Shown one piece after another: positions 15,426 through 23,739 of a stretch of 64,000 nucleotides of DNA. The notes under the pieces are model-generated. The model was given only the letters and a program-made list of their open reading frames with translations. It was not told where the DNA came from and searched no databases. Position 1 is the first letter of the stretch. The number at the start of each line of letters is the position of its first letter. Origin of the DNA: an uncultured Lachnospiraceae bacterium (GTDB lineage: Bacteria > Bacillota > Clostridia > Lachnospirales > Anaerotignaceae); the NCBI GenBank assembly GCA_944380405.1, contig CALWHO010000181.1, positions 74 to 64,073 on the forward strand. Reading direction: 5' to 3'. The translations under genes were made by a program, and so were the position numbers.

Positions 15426-15454
15426 TTGAAAAAATGGAGTTTTAACAGTATAAT
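15426..15454 (+). promoter_or_regulatory. sigma-A promoter of the SLOG/DUF1273 gene
   Basis: TTGAAA, a 17 nt spacer and TATAAT. The listed ORF start at 15426 is the TTG of the -35 box itself. Confidence 0.55.
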
Positions 15455-15497
15455 TAAACTTGTAATACACGAATTATTATATAAAGAAGGTGTTCTT

Positions 15498-15983
15498 TTG
15501 TATTCTAAAGAAAATACAGTTTGTTTTACAGGTCACAGAAAAATAAGAAAGTCCGACAAGGATTTATATACAAAAATTTATAATGTTGTTGAAAGTCTTA
15601 TATTACAGGGGTTTTTATGCTTTTGTGCAGGTGGTGCAAGAGGTTTTGACACTATGGCAGCAGAGGCAGTTTTAAGTCTTAGGGAAAAGTACGCTGATAT
15701 AAAATTAGTGCTGGTGCTGCCCTTTTTGGAGCAGTATAAAAAAGAAGAGTCTTGGACTGATGAAGAAATAGATAGATTTATTAATTTGACCAAAAAAGCA
15801 GACAGCGTTGTTTATTTGCAAAGAGATTATTCAAAAAGCTGTTATTATAAACGAAATCAGCTTCTTGTGGAGTATTCTTCCGTTTGTGTTTGCTACAAAA
15901 GCAGAAAAAGCGGGGGAACGGCATATACTGTGGAACTGGCTCAAAAAGAGGGATTAAAAATTATAAATTTAATAGAGAAGTAA
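15498..15983 (+). CDS. SLOG-superfamily DUF1273 (YpsA-like) protein
   Basis: The sequence VCFTGHRK...GGARGFDTMAAEAVL...GGTAYTV is characteristic of DUF1273. I prefer the TTG at 15498, which follows GAAGGTG and lies downstream of the promoter. Confidence 0.7.
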   Translation: MYSKENTVCFTGHRKIRKSDKDLYTKIYNVVESLILQGFLCFCAGGARGFDTMAAEAVLSLREKYADIKLVLVLPFLEQYKKEESWTDEEIDRFINLTKKADSVVYLQRDYSKSCYYKRNQLLVEYSSVCVCYKSRKSGGTAYTVELAQKEGLKIINLIEK

Positions 15984-16021: not shown

Positions 16022-16226
16022 GGCAAGGATTATAAATACTTTATTTTAAAAAGTATTTGCGAGAGGGCCCATCTCAGAGTTGCGAAGCCCGAAGTGCCCT
16101 CTCGTGCTCTCCCATCTTGGGCGACGCTTTTCGTATGTGTACGGCTCTTGCCATTTACAAAATAATATTTAAATTCTTTTTTACAAAAAAATAAACCCAT
16201 CAGCCATGAACAACAAAAGGCGTGGC
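16022..16226. repeat. F2 structured repeat, unit A
   Basis: The unit reads ggcaagNaYtataaat...aaaagtatttgcgagagggccc...gccctctcg...cttgggcgacgcttttcgtatgtgtacggctcttgcc...cccatcagccatgaacaacaaaaggcgtggc. It is nearly identical to unit C. Confidence 0.85.
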
Positions 16227-16270
16227 TTACTTCTTTTCTCTCTTACCCTTGAAAAAAGTTCTTATTTCTC

Positions 16271-16600
16271 GGTAAGAACTATAAATTCTATATTTTACAA
16301 AAGTATTTGCGAGAGGGCCCATCAATGCACCCGACGAACAAGGGCGGCAAAGCCGGTTTGCGAAGCAAAATGCTGACAGGGAGCCCCGAAGCCCTGACCC
16401 CCTCTCGCGCTCTCCCATCTTGGGCGACGCTTTTCGTATGTGTACGGCTCTTGCCCTTTACAAAATAAATTCTTTTTAACTTTACTTTAAATAAAAAATA
16501 ACCCACTATCCACGAAATACAAAAGGCGTGGCCATAGGGTTGGGGTTCAAGGGGAAGGGACACGGCCTTCGCAACTACGAGTTCTCCCTTCCCCTTGGAG
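16271..16600. repeat. F2 structured repeat, unit B, with inserted sub-module M and a G-rich hairpin extension
   Basis: It has the same framework as units A and C. The apex of the first hairpin is replaced by cccgacgaacaagggcggcaaagccggtttgcgaagcaaaatgctgacaggg. It is followed by the 12 bp stem aaggggaaggga/tcccttcccctt (16549-16596). Confidence 0.85.
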
Positions 16601-16707
16601 AAAACTTTATTGCCATTTATAAAAGCCAACTTCTCGTCGGCTTCTTCCTAAAGGAAGAAGGTCGGCGACCGTAAGCCAAATCTCTCCAACAAAACTCTCC
16701 ACTCCTC

Positions 16708-16980
16708 GGCAAGTACTATAAATCCTCTGTTTTACAAAAGTATTTGCGAGAGGGCCCATCTCAGAGTTGCGAAGCCCGAAGTGCCCTCTCGCGCTCTCCC
16801 ATCTTGGGCGACGCTTTTCGTATGTGTACGGCTCTTGCCCTTTACAAAATAATATTTAAATTCTTGTTTACAAAAAAATAAACCCATCAGCCATGAACAA
16901 CAAAAGGCGTGGCAAACAGGTTGGGTTTTAAGGGGAAAGAGCACAGCCTTCGCATACTTCGAGCGTCCCTTCCCCTTGAA
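16708..16980. repeat. F2 structured repeat, unit C, with the G-rich hairpin extension
   Basis: 16729-16913 is nearly identical to unit A. The extension at 16930-16977 is homologous to 16549-16596. Confidence 0.85.
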
Positions 16981-17007
16981 ATAAACTCTTTTCAAATTTC
17001 CATTAAT

Positions 17008-17048
17008 AAAAACATATCCCACCAGCCATGAATAACAAAAGGCGTGGC
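17008..17048. repeat. F2 partial unit D (terminal hairpin only)
   Basis: cccaccagccatgaataacaaaaggcgtggc matches the 3' end of units A-C. Confidence 0.7.
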
Positions 17049-23395: not shown

Positions 23396-23427
23396 AAAAA
23401 GAACCTCCACTTTTGGAGGTTCTTTTT
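23396..23427 (-). terminator. distal copy of the duplicated pyrG terminator hairpin, with full U-tract
   Basis: aaaaagaacctcc-actttt-ggaggttcttttt. On the minus strand the stem is followed by TTTTT. Confidence 0.65.
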
Positions 23428-23428
23428 A

Positions 23429-23711
23429 AAGCAGTAGAAAAAATAGTTTTCACACCATTTTACTAATGCGGAAAGGCTTGGGAAACGAAGAGTTTCCCAA
23501 ATTTAATCCGCAGTAAAGAACCCGACGAACAAGGGCAGCACAGCTGTTTTGCGTAAGCAAAATTCCGACGGAATTCACTTCCGACGAGGAAAAACGACAA
23601 GTTTCTAGGCATAAATGCCTATGAAACTTACGTTTTATACCTATGTCTCTCGGCAAAGACTTGAATGTAATGAGTCTTTGCCGAAGGGTAGTGGACATCG
23701 TCCACACCCTC
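23429..23711 (-). repeat. E-family structured intergenic repeat, copy E3 (carries sub-module M)
   Basis: The reverse complement aligns with E1 and E2 at three points: the hairpin gcaaagac-tcattacattcaa-gtctttgc, the motif ggtataaaa, and the module cctcgtcggaagtgaattccgtc[insert]tgcggatt...gggaaactcttcgtttccc..cctttccgc. Confidence 0.8.
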
Positions 23712-23739
23712 AAAGAACCTCCGCTTTGGGAGGTTCTTT
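23712..23739 (-). terminator. proximal copy of the duplicated pyrG terminator hairpin, with weak U-tract
   Basis: aaagaacctcc-gctttg-ggaggttcttt starts 2 nt after the pyrG stop. It is identical to 23398-23425 at 26 of 28 positions. Confidence 0.55.

Follow-up and report, generated by a model that had tools for sequence, protein, structure and literature searches.

The question raised by this locus is why one short, hairpin-forming piece of DNA should be nested in two different families of larger repeats. The locus lies in a 64,000-nucleotide stretch of DNA (the window) from an uncultured Lachnospiraceae bacterium, whose genome (G000) is a 2.03-Mb draft of 209 contigs and 35% GC; other genomes, contigs and loci are designated here by G, C and L numbers. 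An earlier note had described a unit of roughly 50 nt with two hairpins, here called M, in one copy at 16331 inside unit B of the repeat F2 and a second at 23521 inside E3, a copy of the repeat E, and had regarded it either as an autonomous mini-insertion or as an exchangeable stem within a modular family of RNAs. Our analysis points to a modified form of the first reading, in which M is probably a discrete, non-coding and non-autonomous palindromic mini-insertion that folds as DNA. It inserts into, or persists in, the loops and junctions of repeats rich in hairpins (E, F2, a repeat bearing terminal inverted repeats, and other copies of M), as well as in intergenic DNA, open reading frames (ORFs) and phages.

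Both copies were recovered. The 16-nt seed CCCGACGAACAAGGGC is present twice in the window, on the forward strand, at 16330 (one nucleotide before the position first given) and at 23521 (exactly as given); 0.06 occurrences are expected from shuffled sequence, and none of 100 shuffles contained two or more. Global alignment of the two quoted 50-mers returned the claimed 43 matches over 51 columns, and the G-C to A-T compensation in the first hairpin (CGGC/GCCG versus CAGC/GCTG) and the GAA and GTAA loops of the second were correctly described. A loose pattern matched 38 places across G000, where the seed is not rare, and the boundaries of M were set by comparing these places together with E copies with and without the module. 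The unit so delimited is 53–54 nt long, or 57–97 nt where helix P2 or P3 is expanded, and has fixed ends, 5'-(A)AAG[C/A/T]AC...AAAAT[G/T/A]C[C/T]GA-3'. Its start lies 6 nt before the quoted seed (5'-AATGCAC in the F2 unit B copy, AAAGAAC in the E3 copy) and its right end is GAAAATTCCGA.

The fold of M is a four-helix cloverleaf, in which the two hairpins first noticed are real, as P2 and P3, and are accompanied by two further helices, P0 and P1. P0 is a 3-bp closing stem that joins both ends of the module; it is GCA/TGC in the F2 unit B copy and GAA/TTC in the E3 copy, a second compensated change between the two. P1 is CCC/GGG around a conserved, purine-rich 9-nt loop, which is GACGAACAA in this subfamily, and P2 and P3 are variable and mostly capped by C(GNA)G triloops. 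The 21-nt left end made up of P0 and P1, AAAGAACCCGACGAACAAGGG, is letter-identical between the 35% GC genome and GC-rich genomes, while P2 and P3 track local GC content. M codes for nothing and must rely on a host or trans-acting activity.

Structural support for M comes from covariation and not from folding energy. In 26 hand-picked copies, 95.4% of cells in the paired columns were paired, with changes on both sides in 9 of 16 pairs, as against 29–47% when the partners were slid by 1–3 columns. The 50 copies gathered with a covariance model, R1, came from the window and from 33 loci in many genomes, and 46 of these copies were distinct; among the distinct copies 98.2% of cells were paired, a percentage inflated because the alignment was fitted to the model, and double changes were found in 12 of 16 pairs (108 cells), with slid controls at 34–63%. 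The structure was derived from the same sequences that were used to test the pairing. Compensatory changes occur in every one of the four helices: P0 is found as GCA/TGC, GAA/TTC, GTA/TAC and CAA/TTG, P1 as CCC/GGG and CCT/AGG, and P3 as TTTTGC/GCAAAA, TTTTCC/GGAAAA, TTTTCGC/GCGAAAA and TTTTCAC/GTGAAAA, with many pair types also in P2. Folding energies were weak, with z-scores of −0.07 to −0.9 for RNA and −0.9 to −2.4 for DNA.

The junctions of M are defined to the base. At slot A, one of several positions in E where M is found, an empty copy runs directly from ..AATCCGCAGT into CGGAATTC.., and a filled copy carries M between these two sequences (..GCAGT-CGGAAT..) with no duplicated base. E copies without M are contiguous over the slot A gap on contigs C96, C143, C15, C193, C204 and C91 of G000, and E elements of other genera match the query at positions 5–54 and then 109–250 without a gap in the subject. 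No target site duplication was found at the M junctions compared, the boundary at slot B being ambiguous by 1–2 nt, and M has no terminal inverted repeats, as its ends AAAG[C/A]ACCCGACG.. and ..AAAAT[G/T]CCGA are not inverted copies of one another. A comparable site is offered by a prophage on contig C8, where M follows the stop codon of a terS-like gene and precedes terL: the nearest relative in IMG/VR (70% terL identity, with a homologous upstream gene) has 4 nt between the two genes, versus 71 nt including M in G000, and M was found at this junction in none of 80 related phage loci.

A census of G000 with R1 (E < 0.01) gave 72 copies of M, all but two of them in slots of E. Slot A holds about 36 copies in forward orientation, 24 of the type in the earlier note and 12 with a P1 of CAGCA-AAGAAG-TGCTG, the two sometimes in tandem; slot B holds about 22 forward copies, which follow GACGAGGAAAAG; and slot C holds about 14 inverted copies with a long P2, within the E hairpin GGAGTTTCAAGGC..GATGGAACTCC. 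A fourth slot, D, is occupied by a more distant variant. The two remaining copies are the one in the prophage and the one at the head-stem apex of F2 unit B, in forward orientation. The flanks of M thus vary and its copies are many and strongly covarying, so that it is neither a fixed part of one repeat nor a mere pair of similar hairpins, the two outcomes that had been named as speaking against a mobile or swappable module.

Among the 36 complete E copies at least 17 architectures could be distinguished, combining a short or long domain 1 with slots A–D, and at least 12 carry no M at all. Every pair of slots shows all four combinations of presence and absence, and the slots therefore change independently, through repeated gain and loss or through recombination. 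Identity among M copies is 93–96%, versus 80–91% for the flanking 24 nt of E. Part of this pattern would also be expected if M were immobile on its own, a block of hairpins copied among repeats by template switching, gene conversion or unequal crossing-over and then carried passively. M copies group into subfamilies by E slot (Ma, N, Mb, Mc, Md), which is what amplification of E together with its cargo would produce, violations of the four-gamete test are expected from recombination among about 50 E copies, and slippage would suit the spacerless head-to-tail arrays of M, as would the lack of a target duplication, terminal repeat or associated enzyme suit a block of this kind. We nevertheless consider this explanation unlikely, mainly for what is seen outside E.

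Outside G000, R1 matched 54 of 113 genomes and 12 of 23 genera in a sample of the family (E ≤ 1e-3), and 24 of 201 genomes from about ten families in a sample of the order (E ≤ 1e-4). In a phylum-wide sample of 400 genomes, where sensitivity was reduced by scoring 14 candidates per genome, none outside G000 matched at E ≤ 1e-6; an exact-pattern scan of 185,579 species genomes returned only two loci, with a pattern that required TTTGC..GCAAA in P3 and was too strict by later model searches. M is widespread in an order of Clostridia, most of them uncultured, and in some of their phages, and it occurs in no fewer than four unrelated families of repeats. In G188, which belongs to another family, at least 28 near-identical copies lie within an unrelated repeat of ~250 nt (loci L057-L068), near the right end of that repeat, which is bounded by the terminal inverted repeats GGCAACGTTGCAAAAT and ATTTTGCAATGAAGCC. 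The same ~250-nt repeat has an optional internal module of its own, GACAAACGCCTGAAATGGCAAAAAGACGCCATTTCCACAGTTTT. In the GC-rich genome G135, M is found solo and in head-to-tail arrays (2x59 and 3x69 nt), with some copies immediately ahead of a ribosome-binding site and others antisense to neighbouring genes. Solo copies directly before a ribosome-binding site were seen at L010 (ahead of a spoVG-like gene), L013 and L073. A module of the M family occupies slot A of E in inverted orientation in genus g9, M is nested within M in G120 and at locus L001, and arrays of M sit in the apex of yet another hairpin repeat in G112 and G001.

Protein-coding and viral DNA carry M as well. In an IS5-type transposase ORF of G038 and G188 (loci L075, L078 and L080), M lies between ..GLIHS and VKFTA.NVHD in five of five copies, and in the ORF at G188:C197 it is 57 nt long, in frame and free of stop codons. 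Three viral contigs contain full M with the exact 20-mer, and in one of them M is part of the reading frame of a lipoprotein-like ORF. A passively carried block accounts poorly for these contexts: the 21-nt left end is identical in unrelated hosts, in families of very different GC and in viral contigs, the copies in ORFs and at the phage gene junction have no flanking homology to E, and the ends are the same in every context, where illegitimate recombination would leave them ragged. The core of the earlier proposal of a mini-insertion is thereby upheld, by identical ends in at least eight unrelated contexts, base-exact empty sites in E, both orientations, ORFs, phage DNA and tandem arrays; its word "autonomous" needs qualifying, M being non-coding.

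Whether the folded form is DNA or RNA was judged from pairs, loops and orientation. Among 719 paired cells there were 7 G·T and 3 A·C, a G·T share far under the level usual for structured RNAs. The apical loops predicted for P2 and P3 in the 46 distinct copies were C(GAA)G in 34 cases, C(AAA)G in 9, C(GTA)G in 5 and C(GCA)G in 3; C-G-closed GNA triloops, of the GCGNAGC mini-hairpin type, thus make up 42 of the predicted loops, and the nine C(AAA)G loops keep the C-G closure but not GNA. The GNA loops are all on the strand of the GACGAACAA loop, so that one strand can be called the "sense" strand. In most copies the apical part of P2 or P3 reads GCGAAGC, GCGTAGC, GCGCAGC or CCGAAGG, and a 2026 review describes GCGNAGC and CCGAAGG as "mini-hairpin DNA" motifs, whose stability is extraordinary in DNA form and far lower in RNA form (PMC13037366). 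A search against Rfam (release 15) found nothing at gathering score in the 64-kb window and nothing overlapping M up to E = 10 in both host regions, and ARAGORN found no tRNA or tmRNA genes in the window. Folding as DNA is favoured by the occurrence of both orientations, the C(GNA)G loops, the rarity of G·T and the lack of an Rfam match.

The same observations make it improbable that M is a functional RNA domain, that is, a protein-binding or stabilising cloverleaf common to non-coding RNAs of E and F2 and acting also in the 5' leaders of some mRNAs. Such a domain would be in keeping with the covariation in all four helices and the high conservation of the loop, with the promoter-like TATAAAT boxes that precede the F2 units, with the several solo copies just upstream of a ribosome-binding site and with the GTAA loops, which are of GNRA type. 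An RNA domain would not, however, be expected to lie inverted within the same host element or antisense to neighbouring genes, or to be read through in frame within ORFs; C-G-closed triloops outnumber tetraloops, G·U makes up about 1% of pairs, and Rfam matches none even at E = 10. For similar reasons (inversion in the same host, no fixed orientation to neighbouring genes, triloops of the C(GNA)G type and a near-absence of G·U) the swappable stem of a modular RNA family, as suggested earlier, became the less likely of the two original readings. Hammerhead, twister and other small ribozymes, considered because of the three-helix shape and tandem arrays of M, were rejected because no core motif was visible by eye and no Rfam match was found, and a K-turn or K-loop in P1 would be non-canonical, since the 3' strand has AA and not GA before the stem. 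For annotation, the case serves as a warning that covarying stem-loops within such repeats need not be RNA.

A fold in DNA could also be of use to its hosts. By analogy, M might act as a single-stranded-DNA signal, either a priming or initiation site or a cluster of hairpins that excludes SSB, and might have been captured by host repeats for that reason. Mini-hairpin DNA motifs bind SSB poorly and are found at single-strand initiation sites (the G4 origin, ssiA) and in N4 promoters (PMC13037366), and the P2 and P3 of M are of the same GCGAAGC or CCGAAGG type; a benefit of this sort would agree with the presence of M in phages as well as in repeats of at least four unrelated families. We give the idea little credence, as M is not linked to genes for replication or transfer, at least 12 of the 36 E copies manage without it, and no host element that might profit is evident around the solo copies in ORFs. 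The six copies in one complete genome showed no clear pattern of replication-strand bias.

For M as a mini-insertion folding as DNA, the likeliest course of events would be that it moves or is copied as DNA, in a folded form that is single-stranded or cruciform and of one defined strand, and that the conserved P0/P1 end serves as the recognition site of a putative trans-acting enzyme. Because M closes on itself, the fold of a host repeat would be left undisturbed, which would explain the build-up of M in loops and junctions. A bolder version, which we hold to be doubtful, makes M the substrate of an undescribed, structure-reading DNA-inserting activity: a folded single-stranded DNA cloverleaf, its ends held by P0 beside the invariant P1 hairpin, would be spliced into exposed loops of other DNA hairpins without target duplication. 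If so, M would be a 54-nt "parasite of parasites", passed on horizontally within the Clostridia and their phages, and would need none of the transposase families tested.

To our knowledge, REPs alone among the common very small palindromic repeats have a known mobilising enzyme, and M provides a sequence handle for finding another. Two enzyme families were examined as mobilisers. The Y1 transposase (PF01797; IS200/RAYT) was rejected because, although present in 68 of 113 genomes, it is absent from the M carriers G053, G056, G001 and G002, and no flank similarity was found; the three Y1 loci in G000 look like ordinary IS200-type units and have no M at their flanks. The IS1182-type DDE transposase (PF13751) was rejected because it is found in only 12 of the 113 genomes, versus 54 with M. 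No similarity to the M ends was seen at the ends of the Y1 and IS1182-type elements in G000.

Several points weigh against a mobile M, in addition to the inflated pairing percentage given above. Neither of the two enzyme families tested gave a candidate mobiliser, and neither tracks M across the 113 genomes. The left flanks share no common target word (..CAGT, ..CAGG, ..AAGC, ..CATC, ..CATT, ..TTGT, ..CACT, ..CCGA). In the IS5-type ORF all five copies carry M, so that no empty site exists in the genomes searched. That M is better conserved than its flanks could be a matter of function and not of youth, and most G000 copies could have multiplied passively with E, in which case recombination between E copies would explain the shuffling of slots. 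The mobility of M is suggested by the comparison of copies; no transposition event was caught.

The single intact IS1182-type transposase gene of G000 (537 amino acids, contig C107) deserves mention in connection with E. It lies between the related terminator-like hairpins GGCTGTTGCAAAATAG.. and GGCTGCCGCAAAACGAATGA.., the same kind of hairpin bracket as is found around E copies, and IS1272, a member of the IS1182 family, is reported to target inverted repeats without target duplication (PMC5678879). Together these observations are a lead for E and not evidence for M. The left-end hairpin of the C107 element, ACGGGTTC-CGAA-GAACCCGT, bears at most a vague resemblance to a 3'/5' junction of M.

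M was compared with known repeats. Pneumococcal BOX elements (boxA-boxB(n)-boxC) and the BIMEs of E. coli are modular mosaic repeats composed of optional hairpin sub-modules in variable number. The E host is of the same kind, with optional sub-modules in variable number and in at least 17 combinations, whereas M itself is not limited to one host family and occurs in unrelated repeats, ORFs and phages in both orientations. Rickettsia palindromic elements, reportedly described by Ogata et al. in 2000, are, like M, small palindromic insertions richer in GC than the AT-rich genomes that carry them, M being the smaller. The GC clusters of yeast mitochondria share this property (PMC5558958, PMC5726470). 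Both kinds of element land in intergenic DNA, in loops of structural RNA or of repeats and in frame in protein genes, sites that resemble those of M; M differs from them in its unrelated sequence, its other hosts, its closing stem with three hairpins and its strict 21-nt end.

REP/REPIN-RAYT systems (PMC2817692, PMC3116915, PMC3337134) are likewise short, palindromic, non-coding, high-copy and mostly extragenic. They also resemble M in lacking classical terminal inverted repeats and target duplication, in occurring solo, in arrays and in mosaics, and in placing a conserved tag beside a variable hairpin. Unlike them, M is a four-helix cloverleaf and not a single hairpin or inverted pair, it has no associated RAYT and no co-distribution with Y1, and its hosts are Clostridia, whereas REPs are mostly from Proteobacteria. 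Membership of this class was rejected, as no cognate Y1 gene is flanked by M and Y1 is absent in several M carriers. The palindrome-associated elements derived from IS200/IS605 (PMC6006769) share with M the lack of terminal inverted repeats and target duplication, structured ends and strand-specific hairpins, but M has no fixed left-flank tetra- or pentanucleotide, on which count it was excluded from that class, its two end hairpins are dissimilar, and no TnpA is associated with it. Insertion of IS1272/IS1182 into hairpin-forming inverted-repeat targets without target duplication (PMC5678879) is also reminiscent of M, which shares no clear terminal repeats with the IS1182-type element of G000.

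Of the remaining classes, a classical bacterial miniature inverted-repeat transposable element agrees with M in being small, non-coding and multi-copy and was rejected for want of terminal inverted repeats matching an insertion sequence and of a target duplication. An integron attC site (RYYYAAC ... GTTRRRY) was rejected on its core sites, as only the AAC of AAAGAAC fits and the 3' end is ..AAAATTCCGA. The d(GCGNAGC) mini-hairpin is a physical motif (PMC13037366), and M combines two such hairpins with a third one, which is conserved, and with its closing stem. In the literature no description of M was found, a word of its sequence matching only an unrelated primer. In how it works M resembles other very small palindromic repeats (REP/REPIN, the Rickettsia elements, GC clusters and double-hairpin elements), and nothing observed here is a new principle; it is a well-defined case, with exact ends, a conserved 21-nt recognition-like end, four covarying helices, DNA-type loops and insertion, in both orientations, into the loops of other mobile repeats.

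The window itself contains four modules and not two. The copy in F2 unit B spans 16324-16376 on the forward strand, reads AATGCAC-CCGACGAACAAGGG-C-GGCAAAGCC-G-GTTTGCGAAGCAAA-ATGCTGA and scores 72.7 bits with R1; its minimum-energy fold with DNA parameters is the complete four-helix cloverleaf. The copy in slot A of E3, at 23515-23568 on the forward strand, is preceded by the end of E domain 1 (..AATCCGCAGT), is followed by the hairpin CGGAATTCACTTCCG and scores 81.8 bits. Two further modules are in E1, both on the reverse strand. The one in slot B, at 1995-2047, is a variant (CCTGACGAACTAAG.. / GGCAAAGCC / TTTTCCAAAGGAAAA) situated between GACGAGTAAAAGC and CAGTGAGTTTCAAGG (65.9 bits), and that in slot D, at 1904-1961, is a member of the M family reading TTGGCAC-CCACAAAGATGTGCGGG-TCAGCGAAGCTGA-CTTTTCGAAGAAAAG-TGCTGA (30.2 bits, E = 8e-7), which also folds as a cloverleaf with DNA parameters and has the architecture of the genus g9 modules. 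The host units thought to lack the module, F2 units A and C and E1, do lack it at the equivalent point, E1 having its two modules in other slots. The position ascribed to M at the apex of a host stem is right for F2 unit B; in E3 it is the junction between two host stems.

In F2 the host is the head hairpin of unit B (16309-16408, forward strand), with arms GCGAGAGGGCCCATC (16309-16323) and CCCTCTCGC (16400-16408). M comes after CCCATC and before the apical mini-hairpin of this stem, so that the apex contains M and a diverged apical hairpin; in unit C only 17 nt separate the arms of the same stem. The F2 copies on contigs C4, C121 and C57 have no M. Heads of F2 type (GCGAGAGGG..CTC[GA]GAGTTGCGAAGCCCGA..CCCTCTCGC, then ..TTGGGCGACGC), which in the window belong to F2 at 16022-17048, are also multi-copy in genomes of genus g3. 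In the window a SLOG/DUF1273-type gene, at 15426-15983, has an F2-like unit beside it, and the same arrangement recurs at locus L038 (G004:C113). To the eye, the F2 tail resembles a diverged inverted copy of the head, and F2 may therefore be a repeat with long inverted ends.

The E3 element (23468-23711, forward strand) is of the short-P1 type and has slot A filled and slots B, C and D empty. It is bracketed by two terminator-like hairpins without assigned strand, an upstream copy at 23398-23425 and a downstream copy at 23712-23739, which are 93% identical over 28 nt; the downstream copy is the terminator of a CTP synthase gene, for which an exact-protein look-up matched one 2-kb contig. Locus-specific duplicated hairpins of this kind surround many E copies. 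The short form of E domain 1 has the apical sequence GGGAAAC-GAAG-CGTTTCCC, and the long form adds a 64-nt expansion of three hairpins (..GTAAGTTTGCTAAAGCAAACT..GGCTGTCCGCC.ATCTTGGCGG..), which is another optional module of E and assorts independently of M (for example, C68:6313-6593 versus C204:1068-1229). Much of the length variation of the E repeats, and of their breakage in the assembly, is explained by M. Contigs end within M or E copies at C14:34, C55:6, C170:35, C38:22, C201:8 and C81:53, and because many G000 contigs end in this way these repeats are a main cause of its fragmentation; the true numbers of M and E copies probably exceed those counted. Among 52 loci E is not oriented at random: of the 46 copies that could be scored, 38 have their 3' side towards a gene running the other way, and 20 copies are flanked by convergent genes. 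Two E copies (from C17:6922 and from C21:6284 onward) are cut at different points by one further repeat, GGCTTTATAACTTT..TTTAA.CTCGAAAAAGTCCAAATGGACTTTTTCGA, which is another insertion element of G000.

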